Shown here: positions 12,538 to 62,163 of the stretch, in pieces
Layout: each line of letters opens with the position of its first letter
How positions within the stretch are numbered: the stretch's first letter is position 1
Source: a virus
Taxonomy: Duplodnaviria; Caudoviricetes
IMG/VR virus record: IMGVR_UViG_2784746770_000001
Span: 32,001 to 96,000 of that record
DNA: 64,000 bases
Reading direction: 5' to 3' (one strand)
Position numbers and translations under genes: made by a program
The notes under the pieces: generated by a model
Databases searched by the model: none
Seen by the model: the letters and a program-made list of their open reading frames with translations, nothing else
What the model was told of the DNA's origin: nothing

Positions 12538-12563
12538 CCCGTGTCTCACATGTGAGACACGGG
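12538..12563. repeat. parS-like palindrome 1
   Basis: Perfect 26-bp palindrome with core GTGTCTCACATGTGAGACAC. Confidence 0.75.
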
Positions 12564-12567
12564 TCGA

Positions 12568-12613
12568 AGCGCCGTCTGGCGTGTCTCACATGTGAGACAC
12601 GCCAGACGGCGCT
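12568..12613. repeat. parS-like palindrome 2
   Basis: Perfect 46-bp palindrome with the same 20-bp core. Confidence 0.75.
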
Positions 12614-12717
12614 CTTCCTTCTCGGAGGTCTCTGCCCACTCATAATCGTCGGGCTGGCAGAATGCGAGCGAATTGTTCGCCGTGCCTTCGGAGGGCGCTG
12701 TTGTGGCCATCATCCCT

Positions 12718-13599
12718 ATGTCGGCTGTAGATATCGGCATCGACTACTCGCGGTTCACCCCTGTCTTCGCCTTCGCCAGCGGCAAGGGCGGCGTCGGAAA
12801 GACGACCCTGACCGGCAACAACGCCACCAAGACCGCGAGCAAGGGCATCCCGACGCTCGCGATCGACGCCAATGGGCAGGGCAACCTCCGCCGCGAGTTC
12901 GGGATAGGAGAAGGCGACGGGGGCAAGGCGTTCGTTCAGGCGCTGCGCGACGGCACCCCCCTCGTGCCCGTCAAGAACGTTCGGCCGAACCTGGACGTCG
13001 TGCTCGGCGGCAAGGAGCTGCGAGCGATCAACACCGTGTTCATGGAGATTGCGCAGGAGTCGGGGCCGATCGCGGCCTTCTGCCGCCTCGCACAGTGCTT
13101 GCAGCCGCTCCTGAACCAGTACGGCGTCGTCTGGATCGACGCGCCCCCGGAGAACCCCAACGTCCTCACTCTCTGCCTGTGCGCGAGCAGGTGGCTGGTG
13201 ACCCCCGTCAAGATGGACGTCTGCTCGCTGGAAGACGCCCTGAAAGACATCTCCGACACCTTCAAGGCCGCCAGGAGCGTAAACCCGCTCCTCCAACTCC
13301 TCGGAGTTGTCCACTTCGGCTCTCCCAGCGGTGCCACCAGCATCCACAGGGAAGTCGTTGCCGAGGCCCGAAAGCTCCTCGGCAAGAGCACCCACGTCTT
13401 CGAGGAGTCGATCCACGCCTCGCCCAAGACGGCGAAGCTGGCCCGCGAGCTCGGGCTCTCCGTGTGGGAGCTGGAGGCGAAGAGCCGCGAGGAAGACAAG
13501 CGCATGGCTGAGCAGATCAGCAACCTCGCCGGCGCTCACGACAAGCTGACGACCGCCCTCTTGCGCCAGATGCGCGCCCGAATGGAGATCACTGCATGA
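12718..13599 (+). CDS. parA: ParA family partition ATPase
   Basis: Deviant Walker A SGKGGVGKTT, IDANGQGN, Walker B WIDAPP. Start is uncertain (12673-12718). Confidence 0.92.
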   Translation: MSAVDIGIDYSRFTPVFAFASGKGGVGKTTLTGNNATKTASKGIPTLAIDANGQGNLRREFGIGEGDGGKAFVQALRDGTPLVPVKNVRPNLDVVLGGKELRAINTVFMEIAQESGPIAAFCRLAQCLQPLLNQYGVVWIDAPPENPNVLTLCLCASRWLVTPVKMDVCSLEDALKDISDTFKAARSVNPLLQLLGVVHFGSPSGATSIHREVVAEARKLLGKSTHVFEESIHASPKTAKLARELGLSVWELEAKSREEDKRMAEQISNLAGAHDKLTTALLRQMRARMEITA

Positions 13600-14558
13600 C
13601 CGCCCCCACTCCGGAGACGGACAGTGTCGAAGAGGAGAGGGGCGAGCTCGAAGACGCATTCGGCGGCTCAGCCAGCCCTGATGACGCCTTCGACATCCTG
13701 CGCAACCTGAACCTTCCGCCGGGCGCCCAGGCCCTGCTGCCGGGGCCCCAGAAGGGGGAGGATGCCCAACCCGGGGCGGATGCTGGAGCGCCCGAAGCCG
13801 ATACCGGAGCATCCGAAGCCGAGCTGGAGATCCGCACGCTCCAGATGCCGGCCGCGACCGCGTCGCGAGCGGAGCAGCTGGCGTACTGGGAGCGCATCGT
13901 CGAAGAGGAGCGAGCCCTCTACCGCGACACGGTCGCGGCCGCCGACAAGCGCTTCGTTGAGAAGGCGAACCTGCCTCTCTACGTCATCCATCAGAACGGC
14001 CTGTACCTCGACATGGTCTCGCCGAGCACCGGGGCCCCCTACAAGACCTTCAAGGCGTACCTCCAGGAGCGATGGGGCATCTCCAGGGCGCACGGATACC
14101 GGGTTGTGAATGAGCACACAGTCCGCAGGGCACTGGGGGACTTGGCGCCGGAATCGCTGAGCGCGCGGCAGGTCCCGGTGCTCCTGGCCCTGCACCGCCT
14201 GGTCAGCAAGGAGCTCGCCGATAGCGATCTTGAGGCCGCGCAGAAGGCCGGCGATGAGGCCGTGCGGAAGGCGTGGGAGGAGTCCGAAGAGAAGACTCCG
14301 AACGCACTCCAGGCCACGATCAAGCGCCTGGGATGGTCTGTTCGTGCGGTCGAGGCTACAGACGACCTGAGCGACTCCGGAGAGGCTGCCCCGAGCCAGC
14401 TGGACCGCTGGGGCAAGGCGGCGAAGGCATTCGATCCTTCCAAGGCCACAGAACTCAGCGCGGCAGCCGCCCGCGAGCTGTACGAACAGCTCAAGCCATT
14501 CGTCGACGCTTTGGAGAGCGTGGCTCTTCCCAGCGGGAAGAAGACCAAGTCGTCCTGA
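13596..14558 (+). CDS. putative centromere-binding partner of ParA (non-canonical ParB)
   Basis: ATGA coupling to parA; HTH-like YKTFKAYLQERWGISRAHGYRVV; no GxxRxxA CTPase motif. Confidence 0.7.
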   Translation: MTAPTPETDSVEEERGELEDAFGGSASPDDAFDILRNLNLPPGAQALLPGPQKGEDAQPGADAGAPEADTGASEAELEIRTLQMPAATASRAEQLAYWERIVEEERALYRDTVAAADKRFVEKANLPLYVIHQNGLYLDMVSPSTGAPYKTFKAYLQERWGISRAHGYRVVNEHTVRRALGDLAPESLSARQVPVLLALHRLVSKELADSDLEAAQKAGDEAVRKAWEESEEKTPNALQATIKRLGWSVRAVEATDDLSDSGEAAPSQLDRWGKAAKAFDPSKATELSAAAARELYEQLKPFVDALESVALPSGKKTKSS

Positions 14559-14568
14559 CCTTCGAACC

Positions 14569-14612
14569 GTACGAGGGCCCGTGTCTCACATGTGAGACAC
14601 GGGCCCTCGTAC
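14569..14612. repeat. parS-like palindrome 3
   Basis: Perfect 44-bp palindrome GTACGAGGGCCC-core-GGGCCCTCGTAC. Confidence 0.75.
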
Positions 14613-14631
14613 ATGCGCAAGCGCAGCACGA

Positions 14632-25359: not shown

Positions 25360-25710
25360 ATGCCCGTATCCACCCTCGTTGACGAGCACGCCCTCATGTC
25401 CAGCATCACCTTCGCCGCCCGCGTCCGCGCCGGGTACGCCCGCATCGCCCGCGAAGTCCTCGCCGAAGACCCCAGCACCGTCGGCCACCCCCTGCGCTCC
25501 GCGCTCGCCCGCGGCACCCTCAACCCCTCCGACCTCACCGGCCCCGGCTACGCCCCTGTCATCGCCACCGACCCCGTCATCTCCGCCGCGGCCGCCGCCG
25601 GCCACGTCGACGGCCAGCCCGACAGCGCCCAGGCCGCGGTCACCGACGAGATGATCCTCGACGCCGTCCGCCGCGCGTGGAACCTGAACGCCGGCGTCAC
25701 CGGAACGTAG
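25360..25710 (+). CDS. small tail-fibre-associated protein
   Basis: GGAGG RBS; VTDEMILDAVRRAWN; position after the fibre gene. Confidence 0.7.
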   Translation: MPVSTLVDEHALMSSITFAARVRAGYARIAREVLAEDPSTVGHPLRSALARGTLNPSDLTGPGYAPVIATDPVISAAAAAGHVDGQPDSAQAAVTDEMILDAVRRAWNLNAGVTGT

Positions 25711-25723
25711 GCGCGCACGCCGC

Positions 25724-25750
25724 GACACAAGCCGACCGGTCGTGCACCGT
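25724..25750 (+). promoter_or_regulatory. late promoter motif copy
   Basis: GACACAA-N14-CACCGT. Confidence 0.6.
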
Positions 25751-25826
25751 ACGGCAATGCGGGGAGCCGCGGGCCTCCAGGCCCCGGCTCCCGCGCACCC
25801 ATATCCACTTTCGAGGAGGGGCGCCC

Positions 25827-26327
25827 GTGGACTGGCTCACTTCCCTGGCGCCCGTCATCGGCCCCCTGGCAGGCGCGGGTGGCGTTGTCGCAGGAGCCTG
25901 GTTCAGCTACCGCCAGGTCAAGCGCCGAGGCGACGCCGACGAGCGGGTCGCCTCCGTGCAGGCCGCTACCTCGGCGCAGGCCGCCGAGGGGCAGACCTAC
26001 GTCGAGGCCATGAAGACGGTGACCGCCGGGTTCTCCTCCCTGCTCGACCAGCAGCGAGGGATGCTCGATCAGCAGAAGGTCGTCCTGGAGCAGGAGCGCG
26101 CGGTGCACGCCCAGACCATCGAGCGCGTCACCGTCCTGGAGGCCGGACAGCTCGAACTCCAGCGGGAGGTCCGGCACATGCGTGAGGAGCAGCGCAAGGA
26201 CCGTCGGTGGAAGGCCGCCGCGCTCGACTACATCCGCGTCCTGCTCGACAGCCTCCGCTCGCTGGGCCGCACCGCTCCCGCGCCACCCGACGAGATCGCC
26301 GAGGACATCAACCGGCCCGCCGAGTAG
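25827..26327 (+). CDS. membrane-anchored coiled-coil protein (lysis module)
   Basis: GAGGAG RBS and GTG start; N-terminal TM helix followed by a coiled coil. Confidence 0.7.
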   Translation: MDWLTSLAPVIGPLAGAGGVVAGAWFSYRQVKRRGDADERVASVQAATSAQAAEGQTYVEAMKTVTAGFSSLLDQQRGMLDQQKVVLEQERAVHAQTIERVTVLEAGQLELQREVRHMREEQRKDRRWKAAALDYIRVLLDSLRSLGRTAPAPPDEIAEDINRPAE

Positions 26328-26336
26328 CCACCGCGC

Positions 26337-26364
26337 GACGCAAGACCCCTGTGCCGTGCAGGGT
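26337..26364 (+). promoter_or_regulatory. late promoter motif copy
   Basis: GACGCAA-N15-CAGGGT. Confidence 0.6.
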
Positions 26365-26400
26365 CCAGTCCTCTCGTCCCCGACAGACAAGGACCCCACC

Positions 26401-26718
26401 ATGAACACCCTCAACACCCTCGCCTTTGCCTCGGGAGTTGGCGCCTTCCTGCCGCTCCTGACCGCGGTCGTGCAGCAGCCCTTCTGGTCGGCCCGGGCCA
26501 AGCGGATCGTGGCCGTCGTCGTCGCTCTGCTCGCCGGCGTCGTCACCGTCGCCAGCACGGGTGGCATCGAGCAGTTCACCCACGGCCTGCCCACGCTCGG
26601 CACGATCGCGGCGGTCCTGGCCGCCTCGCAGGCCGCGCACGACCTCGTCTGGAAGCCGAGCACGATTACGGCCAAGATCGAGTCCGTGACGAGCCCGAAG
26701 CCGGGCACAACGGCCTAA
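26401..26718 (+). CDS. putative holin
   Basis: 105 aa, about 3 hydrophobic segments, LPLLTAVVQQPFWS...WKPS; end of the tail operon. Confidence 0.75.
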   Translation: MNTLNTLAFASGVGAFLPLLTAVVQQPFWSARAKRIVAVVVALLAGVVTVASTGGIEQFTHGLPTLGTIAAVLAASQAAHDLVWKPSTITAKIESVTSPKPGTTA

Positions 26719-26765
26719 TCGGTCCGCTGAGGCCCGCGCCCGGTCTCGGGCGCGGGTATCATCCC

Positions 26766-26981
26766 CGCGAAGGTGAAGTGGCCTCGCTGCCGCCGATCCC
26801 GCCGTTGAAGACAGCGCCTCGTACCTTTCTGGGGGCCCTCCGGGGGCCCTGGCCGACGCGAGGAAGAGCGAATCGAGTCCACTCCGCGCCTAACCGGCGC
26901 CGAGGGCCGGGGAGCCAATCGCTCTGGCGATGAGCCGGCACACGGAGGGGTCGGTCGCAGCGGGGCCACTTCACCTTCGCG
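26766..26981 (+). ncRNA. candidate structured RNA with a closing stem of about 40 bp
   Basis: 26766-26805 pairs with 26942-26981; two of the differences are G-U wobbles on the + strand; TATCAT -10-like hexamer at 26757-26762. Confidence 0.6.
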
Positions 26982-27028
26982 CACCGGCGTCCCGCCGGCA
27001 CACGCATGACTCAGGAGGACGCGCCGGA

Positions 27029-27655
27029 ATGGTGGCATCGCAAAAGGCCCTCCCCGCAGGCGAGGCGAGGCCGGACCACGGCGAGCGCCCGAAGCCCCGA
27101 CGGTGGAAAGACCCAGAGCCGGAGGCCGTTGCCGCCCGGACTGCCGAGCTGGTGCAGATCAGCAAGCACAAGGACCGTCTCAAGCAGGTCGAGCGCCTAG
27201 CGCCCCACCTTGTCCAGTTCCTCACTGTCACCGCCCTCCCGTGGGAGAAGCGGCCCGCCGACTATGAGGTTCAGGCCCTGGCCTTCCGCTCGCCCGAGCT
27301 TGCCCGGACGGTTCGTCCGACTCTCGCAGCCATCGCCCGAGAGCCGGAAAAGTACCTGCCGCAGGGGCCGGAGGAGCCCAGCAAGCGTCACCGCAACCGG
27401 ATCACCGAGCTGCGCAGTCGCGCCCTGGTGGAAGACCGGCTGGTGTACCGAGTGCAGGCTGCCGAAGCGGCCAAGCGCGGCGTCTTCTTGCCGGAGTTCA
27501 ACCCCCGAGGGCGCGCTCGCCAGCGACTCGCGGCCGAGCACCCGGAGCGCTTCCTCGAACTCGTCCGGGAAGAGGAAGCCGCCCAGGCGAAGAAGAACGA
27601 AGTCGAGCGCCGCGAGCGTGCGGCAGCTCGGCGGGTCGACCGAACGCCGTCCTGA
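27029..27655 (+). CDS. basic helical orphan protein
   Basis: AGGAGG RBS; Arg/Lys/Glu-rich 208 aa; lies between the RNA candidate and the repeat array. Confidence 0.75.
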   Translation: MVASQKALPAGEARPDHGERPKPRRWKDPEPEAVAARTAELVQISKHKDRLKQVERLAPHLVQFLTVTALPWEKRPADYEVQALAFRSPELARTVRPTLAAIAREPEKYLPQGPEEPSKRHRNRITELRSRALVEDRLVYRVQAAEAAKRGVFLPEFNPRGRARQRLAAEHPERFLELVREEEAAQAKKNEVERRERAAARRVDRTPS

Positions 27656-27672
27656 TCGACCCGCACCCTCAT

Positions 27673-28352
27673 GAAGGCGTACCCCCTACCGCGGGGGTAC
27701 GCCTTCGTCGTTCACGTACGGCTTCGCTTCTGGGTACGGCTTCGCTTCTGGGTACGGCTTCGCCTTCGGGTACGCCTTCGCCTCTGGGTACGGCTTCGCC
27801 CGCTGGTACCCCTTCGCCTTCGGGTACGGCTTCGCCTTCGGGTACGGCTTCGCCTTCGGGTACGGCTTCGCCTTCGGGTACGGCTTCGCCTTCGGGTACG
27901 GCTTCGCCCTCGGGTACGCCTTCGGCCTCGGTACGTCTTCGTCGTTCACGTACGCCTTCGCCTCCGGTCCGGGTACGGCTTCGCATATTCGCAGGTCAGA
28001 TGGGGCGTACCTCGATGTACGCCTTCGAAGCTATCTCCAGACGTACGCCCCGTACGGATGACTGCGGAGCCTGCCATGTACGCCGGCCTTCCCCCGTGAA
28101 GGCGTACCCGCACGGACAGCAAGGCGTACCCCTACGTCTGGCCTGCACCGGCGCCCCGTACGCCTTCACGTGCACGGGTACGCCTTGGGCTCGGGGCCAA
28201 GGCGTACCCGTACGTCTTCGGGGCGTACCTTCCGGGAGGGCATGTACGCCTTGAGGGCGCACCGAGTCGTACCTTGGCGGAGAGAGATGGGCGTACATAC
28301 GCCGGAGGTTCAGGGCGTACGTACGCCTTCCCGGCAGGCGTACGTACGCCCT
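27673..28352. repeat. GTAC-core repeat array (18-bp tandem units, then dispersed copies in both orientations)
   Basis: Unit GTACGGCTTCGCCTTCGG at an exact 18-bp period from 27716 to 27931; 16 copies to about 27985; then about 20 more GGCGTAC/GTACGCC-type cores. Opens with the inverted repeat GAAGGCGTACCCCC-N6-GGGGGTACGCCTTC. Confidence 0.9.
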
Positions 28353-28453
28353 GAGCTCTCCGACGGGCGACGTGACGTGACGTGACGGGGCCGGATCATC
28401 ACGTCCCCCGGCCGCCCCGGAGGGACGGTTGCCGGAGCGCGAGGTGCGTCACG

Positions 28454-29857
28454 TCATGAGGTGGTCGGGCTTGGCACGATGGCGGCCTCGATCGCCTCGA
28501 TGTTGCGCGCCGGGACGTACATGCCGACGCTGCCGTACAGCTCCGCGGCCGCTGTCTGCCCTCTGGTAGTCATCGCGTCGAGGGTGGCCTGGCGGTGCTC
28601 CGCGATCAGTTTCTGCAGCCTGACCTGAGAGGTGATCTGCTTCAGGTCGGTCACCCCCTTCGGCAGGACCGAAGCGAGGTGTTCGTGGATCTCCTTGCCG
28701 AGCATGTCGGCCTGGAGCCGCGCCTCGATGAGCATCCTCGCCCGCGCCCTGTCCTGGGGGGTTTCCCGTTTCGGCGGAGCCTTCGGCGTCTTGGCCTTGC
28801 CGATGTCTTCCAGGGCCAGGGCGACGGCGGAGTTGGCGTTGACCTGGCCCCACGGGGAGGTGACGACGATGCGCTCCAGGGCCGCCGCGCCGAACCGGTC
28901 GCGGATGCCGGTCAGGGCCTCCTTGTCGGTCCGGGCGTCGTCGAGGAGCTTCTGGACTAGGGCGGGATCGGGCAGAGACGGCTCCTCCGCCTCATCCTCG
29001 GCGTCCGGGCGATCGCCGGCGGGTTCCTCCTCGCCGAGGTCGTCCTCCGCGGGCTCTTCCTCGCTGAGGTCGCTCTCGGAGGGGTGCAGCGTCGGCGGTA
29101 CGGCCCACGGGTCGTTCTCCGGGTCCGGGGTCCGGTTCTCCAGAGTCATCTGCGCCAGGAAGGCTTCGTGTGCGTCCGCGCGTGCCTGCTCGCGTTCGGC
29201 GATCTCGTCGGCCAGTTCGCGGCCGCGCCGGAGGACGTACTTCTCCAGCGTGATCTCGGGCTCGTCGGGGATGCGCGCCTGGAGCATTCCGTTGTCGGCC
29301 GCGACGTTGAGCACTTCGTGCAGCGCCTCGCGGCTGTACCAGACGTCGGGCCGACGAAGCCTGGCGAGGTAGGTGTCGATCGGGGAGCTCACGGCCGTCG
29401 GGTGGTCGCGGTCTCCGTCGTCCAGGTCGCCGGGCCGGACCTCGATCTTGAACGCCTGGAGCAAGGCGTACTTCTCAGCAGCGGTCATCGCCTTGTTCGA
29501 CGCCTTGTCGGAGACGTCGAACGCCTCGCCCACCGTGACGATTCCGGTGTCCATGACGTCGCCGGACGGGCCGCGGACGGCCCATCGGACCTGGATGATC
29601 GTCACGTTCATCTTGCCGCGGCTCTGGTGCTCTCTGCTGATGATCTCGGCGGGGAAGATCCGCAGGCCGTACTTCCGCATCGGGCCGGAGCAGGCCCGGA
29701 TCACGTCCTCCGCTTGGCGGAAGTTGTACTTCTGGTCCTGGTTGGTGCCGTCCTTGCCGATCGGCGCGATCTCTCGCTGAGCGGCGATGAACGCCTTGTC
29801 GACCGACCACGACGTCAGCTCGTCGAGGTCCGGCATGTCGAGAGTGGATTCGGCCAC
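28454..29857 (-). CDS. ERF-family single-strand annealing recombinase with long C-terminal extension
   Basis: IGKDGTNQDQKYNF...DKASNKAMTAAEKYALLQAF...DDGD are ERF motifs. Confidence 0.85.
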   Translation of the reverse strand: MAESTLDMPDLDELTSWSVDKAFIAAQREIAPIGKDGTNQDQKYNFRQAEDVIRACSGPMRKYGLRIFPAEIISREHQSRGKMNVTIIQVRWAVRGPSGDVMDTGIVTVGEAFDVSDKASNKAMTAAEKYALLQAFKIEVRPGDLDDGDRDHPTAVSSPIDTYLARLRRPDVWYSREALHEVLNVAADNGMLQARIPDEPEITLEKYVLRRGRELADEIAEREQARADAHEAFLAQMTLENRTPDPENDPWAVPPTLHPSESDLSEEEPAEDDLGEEEPAGDRPDAEDEAEEPSLPDPALVQKLLDDARTDKEALTGIRDRFGAAALERIVVTSPWGQVNANSAVALALEDIGKAKTPKAPPKRETPQDRARARMLIEARLQADMLGKEIHEHLASVLPKGVTDLKQITSQVRLQKLIAEHRQATLDAMTTRGQTAAAELYGSVGMYVPARNIEAIEAAIVPSPTTS

Positions 29858-32605: not shown

Positions 32606-33686
32606 CGTCGAGAACGGCGAACTCGTCCTCGGGCGGCACAGGCGGCTGCGCCGGGACGGTTGCCGGGTCGGTCGTCTTGTCCTCGGTCCACTGGTTGTCG
32701 CGGTACAGACGCGGCCGCTCGGCGCCGGACGGCACGGGCTGCACGCCGCTGACCTTCCGCAGCGCCCGCTCGAACACGCTGCGGTGCGGAAGCCACTGGG
32801 CGCCAAGTACGAGCGCGGCCATGACCTGGCGGGGCTCGTACGGGTGCGGCTGCGCTGTCAGGGCCTGGCGAATCAGGGTCCGCACCCCGAGGAAGCCTCT
32901 CTGGGCCTCGCCCATGAAGCTGGTCATCTTCTTGGCCTCAACGAGCTTGGGCGCTTCCACGTCCCACCAGCGGTGCGCGCCCTCGTCGGCGAGCTTGTCC
33001 AAGCGGATGTCCTCGGGCGTCTTCTCCTTCTTACGGCTCGGGGCCTTGGGCTTCGGCGCCGGCTCCGGGGCGGGGGCGTTGCTCGGTTCGGCCGGGGGCT
33101 GCGGGGCGGCCTTCTTCGCGCGGGCCGGAGCCGCCTTCTTCGCCGCCGGGCGTGCCGCAGCATCGACAGCAGCCGGCTCGGAAGGAGAGGTGGCCGTGGT
33201 GGATGCGGCCTTCTTCGCGGCCTTCTTCGCCGCCTTGGCCTCCTTCATCTCCTGGACCTTCACGCGGTACCAGGCGTAGAACTCCGCCAGGTTCTTCGGG
33301 CCGGTGTAGTCCTCCGGCGGCGTCTCGTGGACGAAATAGATCTTCTTGACGCTGCCGTCCGGGCGCCGGTTGAGGCTGCCGTCCGGGCGCCGGTCCTCGT
33401 CGATGGTGATGGCCCCGACCTTCGAGAGCTGCCGGAGGTAGGGGTCGACGGACTGCTCGCGGGTCCAGCCGAGCATCATCGAGAGGGCGAGGCGGGTCGG
33501 CCACACCTTGCCGTCGCTCCGGCTGACGTTGACGTGGGCCGCGAGCGCGTCGTACAGAGCCTTCGCCTGCGGATCGAGGTCCGGGCAGACGGTGACCCAC
33601 TCGGGCACCATCGTGAACGGCGCCGCGCGGCGGCCGGCGGCGATCCTCAGCTGCTCGTCGACGTCGGCGAGGTCCTGGTCGCTCAC
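32598..33686 (-). CDS. phage replication initiator (N-terminal wHTH)
   Basis: FTMVPEWV...AKALYDAL...VWPTRLALS...YLRQL; coupled to the DnaC-like gene. Confidence 0.8.
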   Translation of the reverse strand: MSDQDLADVDEQLRIAAGRRAAPFTMVPEWVTVCPDLDPQAKALYDALAAHVNVSRSDGKVWPTRLALSMMLGWTREQSVDPYLRQLSKVGAITIDEDRRPDGSLNRRPDGSVKKIYFVHETPPEDYTGPKNLAEFYAWYRVKVQEMKEAKAAKKAAKKAASTTATSPSEPAAVDAAARPAAKKAAPARAKKAAPQPPAEPSNAPAPEPAPKPKAPSRKKEKTPEDIRLDKLADEGAHRWWDVEAPKLVEAKKMTSFMGEAQRGFLGVRTLIRQALTAQPHPYEPRQVMAALVLGAQWLPHRSVFERALRKVSGVQPVPSGAERPRLYRDNQWTEDKTTDPATVPAQPPVPPEDEFAVLDDV

Positions 33687-35715: not shown

Positions 35716-35742
35716 ACCCTCCGCTGATCTAGGTTCCGGCCC

Positions 35743-36333
35743 ATGCCTCGACGTAAAGACCGGCGCCGTGCCAGACCGCGCGCCCAGCTCCTCACCACCG
35801 AGGTCGAGGCGCGGCTCATCGAGGCCACCCGCATGGGCCTGTCGGTTGACCTGGCCGCGGTCAACGCCGGCATCTCCCGCTCGACCTTCCTGCGCTGGCG
35901 CCGCATCGGCCACCACGAGCTCCAGGACCGCGAGAACGGCGCCGAGCCCAACCCCGAGAACGACCAACTCGTCGACTTCTTCCAGAAGATCGAGCAGGCC
36001 CGCGCCAACGCCGCCTTCCAGGCCGCCCTCGACATCCGCCGCGCGGCCCGAGGCGGCCTCGTCACCACGCACAGGAAGTTCGACCCGCACACGGGCAAGG
36101 TCATCGAGGAGACCATCACCACGCCCCCCGACTGGAGGGCCGCCGCCTGGTACCTCGAACGCCAGCACCGCAAGCAGTACGGCAAGGAAGACCACCTGGA
36201 GATCGAGCTCACCGGCGCCGCCGGTGGCCCGGTCACCGTCCACAACCAGGGGGCCGACGACCTCGCCAGCCGCCTGTCCGAGACCCTGTTCGCCCTCCAG
36301 TACCCCGACGCCGAAGACGAGCCGGAGACCTGA
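35743..36333 (+). CDS. terminase small subunit-like HTH protein
   Basis: AAVNAGISRSTFLRW, DWRAAAWYLER...YG, ELTGAAGGPV pattern. Confidence 0.7.
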   Translation: MPRRKDRRRARPRAQLLTTEVEARLIEATRMGLSVDLAAVNAGISRSTFLRWRRIGHHELQDRENGAEPNPENDQLVDFFQKIEQARANAAFQAALDIRRAARGGLVTTHRKFDPHTGKVIEETITTPPDWRAAAWYLERQHRKQYGKEDHLEIELTGAAGGPVTVHNQGADDLASRLSETLFALQYPDAEDEPET

Positions 36334-37991: not shown

Positions 37992-39592
37992 CGCTGGCTG
38001 ACCTGCACGACTCCGACTTCCTCTGGCCGCCCAGCAGCCTCGGGGGGTGGCCCAGCCGGGGTGTTGCCGGAAGGCTCGTCATCAGCAGGAACCTCCGGCG
38101 CAGGCTCATCGGACGGCTCTCCCGGAGAGGGCGTTGGCTCCGGAACTGGATCGACCGTAGCTATCGGCGTGGGCGTCGGAGTCGGTGTAGGGATCGGCTC
38201 GGACGTCGGGGTCGGTTCCAGGGACGGCTCCGGATCCGGATCCTGAGTCGGCGTGGGCGTCAAGACCGGGGCCGACGTGGGCGTCGGCGTCGGCGTGGGC
38301 GTCGGAGTCGGCGTGGGCGTCGGAGTCGGCGTCGGCTCGGGCGTCGGCGTGGGCGTCGGCGTGGGCGTCGGAGTCGGAGTCGGCTCGGGCGTCGGCGTGG
38401 GAGTCGGCGTGGGCGTCGGAGTCGGAGTCGGCGTGGGGGGCGGGACCGGTTCAAGAGACGGTGCGACGGTCTCCCGGGTCTCCTCCGGCTCCTCTGCCTC
38501 GCCGGTATGACCATCAGGAGAAGCCTTCGTGTCCTCGCCTGGCTCGTCCGGTGCGTCGACCACGATGGCGACTGCATCGTCCGCGCCAGCCTTCGCCTTG
38601 CCCGTGGTCGGCTCGGCGGTCCCAAGGACCAACTGCACCGCACGCAGAAGCTGCTCACTGGAGCCGCTGTTGTCGCCCAGGCCGTACGCGAACGTCCGCT
38701 CGGTCACGCCCAGGGTGCCGAACGCCAACGCTGCCAGAGAAGCAGGCAGCGGGGCCCCCAGAGCCTGCGGATTGACCTTGGAACTGTTGTCCTTCTCCAG
38801 CGCAGCACGCCACTGCCTCAGCCGAATCGGGTCGGTTCCCCACAGCACGACTCGGCCATGCCGCCATACGTTTTGATAGACCTCGCGGTTGGAGTCCTCG
38901 GCCACCCATGCCTGTGCCGCATTGTCGTCAGGGAAGACCCTGAACCCGATCTTCTCGTCCCGGTAGGAGAACGTGAAGACGGTGGACGTGCCGATGGACG
39001 CCTCAGAGGTCATGATCTCCCCGTCGGCGTCCACGCACTTCGCCTCGAACTCGCCGATCGGGTCACACACGATCTGGCCGTCCCTGACGATCTTTTTGAA
39101 CAGCGGCAGGCCGTAGGTCTGGGCGGCTTCCGCATCCGCGTTGCTCAGGTAGGGGGCGTTCCTGGCGGGGCTATCCCCGGTCACAGGGGAGAGGAAGTGC
39201 GCGGCGGCCGCGCCAAGGAGAACCGCCGGAGCAGCGACCGCGGCGAACCGGGCCCACCGCGAGGCTCGGAAGTGTCGAGGGGGCTCCGGTGCGAGTGGTT
39301 CGGCCGCGGCGCTGTCGGGTGCGGCCTCGAAGCGGGGGATGGAGCTGGTGTCGATGCCCAGTCGCTCGTTCATCTCGCGGATCTCGGGGCAGTGCGTACG
39401 GATCAAGTGCTGTGCACGGTCCAGAGACAGGCCGGGCACGGCTTTCGTCAGCTTGCCGACGGCCGAGCCGAAGGACTGCGCCGGCGAGACGAAGACGTAG
39501 GTCACGCCTTCCTCGTCCTCGTAGGCGATGCAGTCCCTTCCCAGGTTCTTGCAGACGACGTTGAGACGAGACCCGGTGTCGCCAGGTATCAC
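37988..39592 (-). CDS. single-pass membrane protein with extracytoplasmic domain and Pro/Thr-repeat tail
   Basis: TM segment [19 protein letters not shown]; (PT)n tract; GTGA-coupled to the upstream gene of the sigma operon. Confidence 0.75.
38253..38440 (-). repeat. coding 6-bp (Pro-Thr) tandem repeat
   Basis: GGCGTC/GGCGTG/GGAGTC units. Confidence 0.85.
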
Positions 39593-61950: not shown

Positions 61951-62163
61951 GGTGGAACTCCCGTAGGGCGAAAGCGGGTGAAAGAGGGGCAGGACGGGCG
62001 CGCGGCGGGGAACTTCACCGCCAACGGCGCAAGCCTCTGACCTGCGAAAAGAACATCTCGTTGAACTTCGTGGAACCGTTCTACGCGCGCGCGTGTCACG
62101 AGAGCGGCTGTGGGCCGGCCCGGGGCGCACCGGCGGGTGCGGTGCGCCCCGGGCGGCCGGGGG

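Follow-up and report, generated by a model that had tools for sequence, protein, structure and literature searches.

A co-inherited structured RNA, basic protein and two-armed repeat array in large Streptomyces phage-plasmids: a candidate replication origin or control region

Bases 32001–96000 of the 129,292-bp virus record IMGVR_UViG_2784746770_000001 (Caudoviricetes; 70% G+C; the record is called G000 below), a window of 64,000 nucleotides to which all positions refer unless a genome coordinate is specified, hold a compact unit between a rightward late/lysis operon and a leftward recombination/replication operon. The unit consists of a 216-nt structured RNA, an open reading frame (ORF) for a 208-aa basic protein and an array of short repeats about 650 bp long. 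Our main finding is that these three parts are one real, conserved and co-inherited unit. An earlier note, made from the letters of the window, had described a TATCAT element, a 216-nt segment with paired ends, an ORF with a ribosome-binding site and a repeat array, all of which are present at the coordinates given below, and had proposed that they belong together. Comparison of the unit across phages, plasmids and Streptomyces genomes bears this proposal out and leads us to interpret the unit, tentatively, as a replication origin or a replication-control region.

Conservation of a three-part unit

Homologous loci (numbered with the prefix L) were collected by three routes, namely homology of the ORF, a DNA pattern for the arms of the RNA helix and a hidden Markov model (HMM) search of genomes, which together gave 39 loci including the source element; two of these, L060 and L167, do not differ within the unit. 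ORF homology yielded 17 loci, located in Streptomyces phage Gilgamesh, five genome contigs, six IMG/VR contigs and five plasmids. The helix-arm pattern matched 119 times in IMG/VR, and 13 of these matches were true by nhmmer (E <= 4e-19), nine of them new; an ORF homologue lies directly downstream of the RNA in 13/13 of the pattern loci, and an array is present in 9/9 of the new ones. The protein HMM matched in 13 of 401 Streptomyces genomes, with the RNA upstream on the same strand in every one of the 13. Over the whole collection, the RNA (as recognized by nhmmer) and the ORF adjoin in 39/39 loci, and an array, recorded when the 760 bp behind the stop codon contain 10 or more copies of the commonest 7-mer, follows in 35/39; in L013 and L164, the array is cut off by the end of the contig after 222 and 150 bp, respectively. 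The homologues of the ORF thus retain the RNA and, with few exceptions, the array, rather than lacking them or combining them independently.

Within the phage collection, the source element has a single relative, Streptomyces phage Gilgamesh (129,136 bp), whose gp76 is 38% identical to the product of the 208-aa ORF over residues 76–181 and whose gene order matches locally (tail and lysis genes, gp76, a 740-bp gap, leftward genes); a search of the same collection at the DNA level (megablast) gave no match. The Gilgamesh annotation includes two tyrosine integrases, an FtsK-like translocase, ParA, a ParB-like protein, a DnaC-like AAA ATPase and helix-turn-helix (HTH) proteins, and no DNA polymerase is annotated in the 100 kb of this genome that were examined. 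Further ORF homologues are encoded on Streptomyces contigs of 125–138 kb, one of them deposited as a complete plasmid, and on five PLSDB plasmids (129.7–132.6 kb), of which four are circular and one is linear as deposited. Because its relatives include Gilgamesh, plasmid-sized contigs and the five PLSDB plasmids, the source element is a member of a family of large temperate phages able to live as plasmids. Copies of the unit exist in chromosomes as well (G014:C1 at 3.98 Mb and G245:C1 at 2.32 Mb). GC skew tracks gene orientation and is uninformative on the position of an origin or terminus. A literature search, which left supplementary files outside its reach, returned no description of the unit or of phage Gilgamesh.

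A structured RNA selected on the + strand

The RNA (26766–26981, + strand), delineated by folding, covariation and nhmmer, consists of a long closing helix and a branched interior. In the source element, the closing helix comprises about 38 pairs in three runs with two single-base bulges, and two differences between its arms are U·G and G·U on the + strand. The + strand of 26760–26990 folds with a minimum free energy of -138 kcal/mol (z = -5.33; 0/200 shuffled sequences as stable), whereas the - strand folds more weakly (-130.8 kcal/mol, z = -3.73). Covariation was assessed on an alignment of 18 RNA sequences, with two kinds of controls, one in which the pairing partners were slid by 1–3 columns and one consisting of 500 column shuffles. 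The consensus of the 18 sequences contains a 27-pair closing helix and at least three interior helices. Standard pairs occupy 95.0% of 716 cells, compared to 35–47% in the slid controls, and changes on both sides are seen in 21/42 pairs, compared to 3–10 in the slid controls; none of the 500 shuffles reached any of the observed covariation measures. The alignment includes 72 G·U cells as against 7 A·C cells, with one G·U pair found in 15/18 sequences, so the pairing is read as that of a + strand RNA. The helix is selected as + strand RNA structure, in agreement with what the earlier note had surmised from G-U-compatible differences in a single sequence.

The GGUGGCC...GGCCACC portion of the helix is nearly invariant, that is, the sequence is conserved besides the pairing, and this additional conservation suggests that the RNA may have a protein partner. 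A cmscan search of 25500–29500 on both strands against Rfam returned 0 matches at E <= 1. Because the RNA lies about 45–90 nt ahead of the ribosome-binding site of the ORF, on the same strand, in every locus, it would most simply not be free-standing but form a promoter-proximal structured 5' leader of the ORF mRNA. A small GC hairpin, CCGGCG-TCC-CGCCGG (26984–26998, + strand), can be read from the sequence after the long helix and ahead of the ribosome-binding site; a short GC hairpin of other sequence is seen at the same position in most aligned relatives.

On the upstream side, the rightward late/lysis operon is closed by a GC-rich hairpin with 10-bp arms and the loop GTCT (26733–26756, + strand), which presumably acts as a terminator and which is found at the same place, before GGTAT[C/G]AT, in relatives as well. 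This hairpin is abutted by TATCAT (26757–26762), the greater part of the conserved -10-like element GGTATCAT (26755–26762, + strand), which is the putative promoter of the unit. GGTAT[C/G]AT is present in 16/18 aligned loci and is replaced by GGTACCAT in the remaining 2. No -35 consensus was found with the -10-like element, and a simple scan of 26500–28600 for sigma-70 promoter and terminator consensus sequences of the E. coli type made no calls; given this negative scan, the assignment as a promoter derives solely from the conservation of GGTAT[C/G]AT.

A basic, all-helical protein of an uncharacterized family

The gene downstream of the RNA (27029–27655, + strand) is preceded by AGGAGG at 27013–27018, 10 nt upstream of its start, and has a GC content by codon position of 0.78 / 0.49 / 0.81, which is typical of coding sequence. 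Its 208-residue product contains 32 arginines and has a pI of 10.3, so that its description as arginine-rich was accurate; it is, however, not the orphan that it had been taken for, since homologues are encoded in the 13 Streptomyces genomes mentioned above and number twelve at E <= 1e-9 and, among 1.84 billion cluster representatives, 91 at E <= 0.001. A scan of IMG/VR with the single protein was empty, and an alignment-based scan found homologues. The most conspicuous features of the family are a nearly invariant C-terminal segment, NPRxRARRRLAxExPERFLELVREE, and a second conserved basic segment of the RSPELARKARR type. A long form of 270–300 aa (P0015, P0018 and Gilgamesh gp76; L158–L167) matches the family profile in two stretches, which indicates a duplicated N-terminal half; no additional Pfam domain was detected in these longer members. 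The 270–300 aa form accompanies arrays of the GGCGCGCC type, which are described below.

The AlphaFold (AF2) model of the 208-aa protein is all-helical, with 8 helices and a mean pLDDT of 83.9. The protein has no match in Pfam, PHROGs, NCBIfam or PADLOC and no usable match in the ESM Atlas; a sequence profile search of the PDB gave a best E-value of 0.046, which is not meaningful, and Foldseek found no structure in the PDB at E <= 0.001. The best hit of a wide VIA-align search (Z 7.2) is to a generic helical hairpin, over residues 88–152. The RNA and the protein are therefore undescribed families with no known match in the databases searched (Rfam for the former; those just named for the latter), as the earlier note, which had recognized no known family, had supposed.

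A two-armed array with clade-specific motifs

The array follows a common plan in the loci that have it: a hairpin, a left arm, an A/T-richer patch with GCAGGTCA, a right arm, and GTGA[C/G] pentamers with an inverted copy 60–95 nt further on that abuts the stop codon of the convergent gene. In the source element, the hairpin (27673–27705, + strand) begins 18 nt past the ORF stop, resembles a terminator and is made of two inverted copies of the array motif, GAAGGCGTACCCC and GGGGTACGCCTTC; it is found at the same place in the other loci shown, and that of L014 holds a U·G pair on the + strand. The left arm (27693–27983) carries the motif mostly in forward orientation and is built on an 18-bp unit, GGGTACGGCTTCGCCTTC, repeated 15.1 times (tandem repeat 27695–27967, score 335). 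The conserved core (27984–28003, + strand), recognized by the conservation of GCAGGTCA, consists of an A/T-richer patch followed by TTCGCAGGTCAGA, and the right arm (28004–28352) is composed of dispersed copies of GGCGTAC / GTACGCC, mostly in inverse orientation. The array is closed by a boundary element (28366–28457), in which direct repeats, (GACGT)x3.8, are followed about 60 nt away by an inverted copy, CGTCACGTCA, and which overlaps the stop codon of the convergent gene.

The motif is concentrated at this single place. GTAC occurs 36 times in 27656–28372, compared to 4.25 times per kb in the rest of the 129-kb genome, an approximately tenfold enrichment; these are 36 of the 582 GTAC sites of G000, and they form the sole cluster of the motif there. 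Likewise, the array of plasmid W02 holds 31 of its 49 GGGTTCGSS sites, the others being singletons. Outside the array, the motif is without strand skew.

The internal geometry of the array is conserved, too. The exact GCAGGTCA is present on the ORF strand in 25/39 loci and on the opposite strand in 0/39, with a chance expectation of about 0.04 per locus, and it lies 239–335 nt after the stop codon in 19 of the 25 loci and 96–188 nt after it in the other 6. The double pentamer GTGA[C/G]GTGA[C/G] follows the array in 28/39 loci; where the GTGA[C/G] repeat is found, the array ends about 570–720 nt past the stop, or about 475 nt past it in L158–L160.

The arm motif varies by clade through single central bases (GTACG, GTTCG, GTGCG, GCGCG). 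Among the first 18 loci, the source element and 9 more have GGGTACG or GGCGTAC arms; GGTTCG arms are found in L013, L015, L018 and L156, GCGTGC or GTGCAC arms in L019, L064, L136 and L142, GCGCGCG arms in L020 and L021, and GGCGCGCC arms in the Gilgamesh clade, and within each array every copy carries the variant of its own clade. In the GTACG and GTTCG clades, the orientation of the motif flips across the core: the numbers of forward and reverse copies are 14/2 on the left and 1/6 on the right in the source element, 16/0 and 0/18 in L015, and 13/0 and 0/19 in L018. A palindrome, GTGTTCCCCnGGGGAACAC, is present in the right arm about 80–110 bp to the right of the core in L007–L011 and L014–L018 and is absent from the source element and the Gilgamesh clade.

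Neighboring genes and linked sites

To the right, the unit faces a convergent gene for a single-strand annealing protein of the Erf family (28454–29857, - strand; Pfam ERF, E = 6.3e-13; PHROG Erf-like), the last gene of the leftward recombination/replication operon. This neighbor is an Erf gene in the source element and L018, and a gene for an AAA_24 ATPase, which we take to be Sak4-like, in L006, L008 and L019 (L006:6151-7836, L008:5121-6911 and L019:5175-6857, each abutting the array). The difference suggests that, in this fixed place, one recombination protein has been exchanged for a non-orthologous one; the unit itself is retained while its right-hand neighbor is exchanged. A DnaC-like loader and an HTH protein are encoded 4–6 kb to the right of the unit, and the leftward HTH gene beside the loader contains two 24-bp tandem duplications (33102–33149 and 33346–33394). 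The small-terminase gene (35728–36333) lies 7.4 kb from the array. Further to the right, 38247–38437 is occupied by a 12/36/48-bp tandem repeat, 13.5 copies of CGTGGGCGTCGG, with open frames overlapping on both strands.

On the other side, the ParA gene (12646–13599) is located 14 kb from the array. A perfect 22-bp palindrome, CGTGTCTCACATGTGAGACACG, occurs twice upstream of parA (12540–12601) and a related one downstream (14550–14631), which looks like the parS-left / parS-right arrangement of a plasmid prophage. The gene for a 654-aa FtsK/SpoIIIE-family (TraB-like) protein is at genome 118.9–120.8 kb, with the array at 59.7–60.4 kb of the same genome. Directly upstream of the ribosome-binding site of this gene, there is a second inverted repeat, GTGACGTGAC...GTCACGTCAC; both of its arms are present in 3/5 genomes shown and one arm in the other 2. 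The GTGACGTGACGT...ACGTCACGTCAC repeat at genome 120860–120910 and at L025:2810-2860 is the same element that closes the array. One regulator may thus link the array and the FtsK/TraB-like gene. A corresponding link through the array motif was considered and rejected: it does not extend to the GCGCGC and GCGTGC elements, and in G000 the few GGTACG copies clustered at the translocase promoter are within what chance would give.

The core motif, in the form TCGCAGGTCAGR, recurs at 62036–62047 (-) and at genome 108730–108741 (-), both intergenic (loci L153–L155), and both extra sites are kept in plasmid W02 with the same 14.7-kb spacing. The 108.7-kb site is preceded by several CAGCGCATGAGG palindromes and looks like a heavily regulated promoter, possibly that of an immunity region. 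The core and the boundary repeat therefore belong to small sets of regulatory-looking sites, and the arm motif is unique to the array.

A possible origin or control region, and competing explanations

The earlier note had left open whether the unit is a novel replicon, a partition module, an RNA-antitoxin system or a decoy RNA for RNA polymerase, and the first of these is the most plausible. We tentatively propose, with less than even confidence, that 26.73–28.46 kb is one cis/trans module that serves as a replication origin or a replication-control region. According to this proposal, a constitutive-type promoter, GGTATCAT, would give rise to an mRNA whose first ~216 nt fold into the long-helix leader, which encodes the small basic helical protein and which would end at the hairpin of two array motifs. 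This transcription unit would be followed by a single-copy DNA site of about 650 bp, in which two arms of a clade-specific 7–8 bp motif (GGGTACG / GGCGTAC in the source element) surround the GCAGGTCA core and which is closed by the conserved GTGAC inverted repeat. The arms would offer iteron-like sites to a DNA-binding protein evolving together with the lineage, for which the adjacent protein is the simplest candidate, and at the core a conserved factor would act or the DNA would open. The leader RNA might control the amount of the protein or might join in initiation, as in RNA-based prophage origins. Transcription from the putative promoter, a binder of the array and the role in replication are what we infer here.

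Several observations speak for this proposal. An origin is to be expected somewhere in these elements, which must replicate as plasmids and have no identifiable Rep protein: relatives are plasmids or plasmid-sized contigs of 129–138 kb, the source element has ParA with its flanking palindromes, and the examined 100 kb of Gilgamesh list a DnaC-like ATPase and HTH proteins and no DNA polymerase. The unit is inherited as a block. Its array is present once, has two arms of short sites with a conserved geometry, and co-evolves by clade; as in iteron-type origins, short repeats are clustered in non-coding DNA, here as the tandem copies of the 18-bp unit together with dispersed ones. Furthermore, the unit lies right against the recombination/replication operon, at its 3' end, where Erf or AAA_24 is followed by the DnaC-like loader. 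The uniformity of the single-base variants within each array accords with a sequence-specific binder that evolves together with its sites, a situation also known from incompatibility determinants. Two published precedents, the RNA-based origins of mycobacteriophage prophages and the repeat-bearing origins of Streptomyces theta plasmids, both discussed below, point the same way.

Other observations weigh against it. The adjacent 208-aa protein matches no Rep family or known fold, and the searches of its sequence and model gave no match to a winged-helix or other known DNA-binding fold. Its two most conserved basic segments are identical in the GTACG and GTTCG clades and are therefore a poor fit to segments that read the variable bases. 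In the GTGCG and GCGCGCC clades, the orientation of the motif does not invert across the core, and the A/T-richer patch measures only about 4–8 bp. The core looks like a promoter/operator element rather than a unique initiation point, because TCGCAGGTCAGR recurs at two conserved intergenic sites, and the 24-bp duplications beside the DnaC-like loader could be either peptide repeats or an alternative origin of the lambda type. Finally, chromosomal copies keep the unit, so that a purely plasmid-maintenance role cannot be general; one chromosomal locus, L161 (G245:C1), is without an array and has unrelated A/T-richer sequence after about 130 bp, and L168 (G349:C12) has lost the 3' half of the ORF together with the whole array through a deletion, with the RNA and the GTGAG boundary repeat kept. 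A bolder version of the proposal, which we regard as doubtful, is that the unit represents a new replicon core for large actinobacterial phage-plasmids, composed of a structured RNA, a helical protein of a new fold and two-armed iterons, whose incompatibility would be re-programmed by single-base motif switches sweeping all 30–50 copies.

Among the other explanations of the array, an unlikely one is that it is a regulatory sink or control region at which the protein, or another regulator of the phage, is titrated or nucleated, setting the lysis-lysogeny state or the copy number in the manner of incA-type iterons or clustered operators without being the origin itself. The recurrence of TCGCAGGTCAGR at two other promoter-like intergenic sites, one of them behind repeated CAGCGCATGAGG palindromes, is consistent with such a function, as are the GTGAC inverted repeat ahead of the ribosome-binding site of the FtsK/TraB-like gene, which is operator-like, and the retention of the unit in chromosomes. 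However, no second motif cluster is present in G000 or W02, so that no regulon is visible, and 30–50 sites at one locus far exceed the needs of an operator; moreover, a sink of this kind is hard to tell from origin control. The arrangement of short-repeat arms around a conserved asymmetric core also recalls a pac-type packaging start, at which the small terminase would bind both arms and cut the core, as at pac of phage P1, where hexamer repeats lie on both sides of the cleavage region. Several of the motif cores (GTAC, GCGC, GGCGCGCC) are short palindromes of the methyltransferase type, and the Gilgamesh record starts at the gene for the large terminase subunit, which, by SEA-PHAGES practice, we take to suggest a circularly permuted headful genome and hence a pac site. 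Yet the GTTCG motif is no palindrome, 7.4 kb separate the array from the small-terminase gene, and neither the RNA nor the protein would have a role, which makes packaging improbable in our judgment. A DNA contig (27931–28168) bridges the core, so that some molecules are continuous there, as expected under either reading; the DNA contigs, which come from one sample and are short and of low depth, show no joints, ends or loose ends.

The array might instead be a clt-like or KOPS-like loading or guide site for the FtsK/TraB-like translocase, with a function in mycelial spread, transfer or spore segregation. Each of the genomes searched, G000 and five relatives, has a gene for an FtsK/SpoIIIE-family protein whose C-terminal domain is helical, and the GTGAC repeat is common to the end of the array and the translocase promoter. 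In the GTACG and GTTCG clades, the G-rich motif points 5'->3' to the core from both sides, for example in L015, which matches the polarity logic of KOPS; however, this polarity is missing in the GTGCG and GCGCGCC clades, and no strand skew of the motif is seen outside the array. The C-terminal domain of the translocase is, moreover, nearly alike in a GTTCG element and a GTACG element (L027 vs L031). In Streptomyces, TraB recognizes 8-bp clt repeats, and the available parts of the published accounts (PMC4170104, PMC3583192) describe clt/TraB loci that resemble the present one in having clusters of 7–9 bp repeats and an FtsK-like translocase on the same element but that, unlike it, adjoin tra/kor and measure 54–175 bp, whereas the array here extends over about 650 bp, with the translocase gene about 60 kb away. 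Overall, we assign this function a low probability. It is far less probable that the array is a partition centromere, even though two short-repeat clusters around a central site resemble some centromeres and the elements have the size of low-copy plasmids: parA, 14 kb away, has its own flanking 22-bp palindromes in the usual parS layout, and because the partition system thus has its own sites, the array is unlikely to be its centromere, and the suggestion that the unit is a partition module finds no support. Also very improbable is that the RNA is a free-standing regulatory RNA (a 6S/Ms1 decoy, an antitoxin or a retron-like RNA) with the ORF and the array as mere neighbors. The RNA is, admittedly, strongly structured and conserved in both sequence and pairing, but it has no match in Rfam at E <= 1, its interior is branched instead of forming a rod with a central bubble, and it always lies about 45–90 nt ahead of the ribosome-binding site of the ORF on the same strand; these features do not favor the suggested 6S/Ms1-type decoy. 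With no repeat structure in the RNA, no PADLOC match for the ORF and no reverse transcriptase or toxin-like gene, the suggested RNA-antitoxin system finds no support either.

Three further candidates were considered and set aside. G-quadruplex or R-loop formation by the arms would fit GGGGTACG-type arrays only, and neither the 18-bp unit nor the palindromic GGCGCGCC type, and is at best a sub-option. A telomere-resolution site was dropped because the core is not palindromic and 4/5 plasmids are deposited as circular. A miniature inverted-repeat transposable element (MITE) or other small inverted-repeat transposon is contradicted by the single copy in the 129-kb genome, the same syntenic place in 39/39 loci and the compensatory changes in the RNA.

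Comparison with known systems

Parts of the unit have counterparts in well-known systems. The oriC of Streptomyces contains many short DnaA boxes in two clusters, and the RNA II primer of ColE1 is a structured RNA made next to the origin; the resemblance of the unit to these two, and to P1 pac, is in layout only, and no sequence or protein homology was found.

The closest analogy in lifestyle is offered by the mycobacteriophages. Most of their extrachromosomal prophages replicate from a small transcribed non-coding region in a central position behind the virion genes, according to the available parts of the study of Cluster A origins by Wetzel et al. (mBio 2020, PMC7157519). Like the elements discussed here, those phages are temperate actinobacteriophage plasmids with parABS, and in both a small region that is transcribed (presumably so here) and lacks a Rep protein is located centrally behind the virion genes. 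Unlike the unit described here, the mycobacteriophage origins adjoin parA and need no ORF, and the same parts of the study (PMC7157519) report no repeated motifs, whereas in the present elements 14 kb lie between parA and the RNA, a conserved ORF stands behind the RNA in 39/39 loci and an array of about 650 bp is present; the two systems are compared by description, not by sequence.

The theta-type origins of Streptomyces plasmids (pWTY27, pFP1/pFP11, SCP2), as far as the accessible portions of the literature describe them, are similar in having non-coding 7–8 bp repeats next to replication genes. The origin of pWTY27 contains five 8-bp repeats and five 7-bp repeats of the inverse motif (PMC3583192), and the two motif sets form a long inverted repeat with A/T-richer patches, like the array here. 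Nevertheless, these origins are described as spanning about 300 bp and as the target of an identified Rep that is encoded alongside (PMC3583192), in contrast to the present unit, in which the array is twice as long and has 30–50 copies, no Rep is recognizable and a structured RNA is included. An array with single-base motif switches is undescribed as far as our searches reach; in its general design, it most likely varies an origin or control architecture that is already known and is not without precedent.

Implications for Streptomyces phage-plasmids

Large Streptomyces phage-plasmids are common in assemblies, and their replication and its control are undescribed. The unit, present in 13/401 genomes searched and in five deposited plasmids, is a defined 1.7-kb candidate for an origin or control region that is directly testable. 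It adds an RNA family whose covariation is unusually clear, together with a protein family without a known fold relative, and the motif switches between clades (GTACG, GTTCG, GTGCG, GCGCG) constitute a natural series for studying the joint change of a binding specificity and dozens of its sites. If the unit does support replication, it could serve to build compatible low-copy vectors for Streptomyces, much as has been done for mycobacteria with the mycobacteriophage origins.

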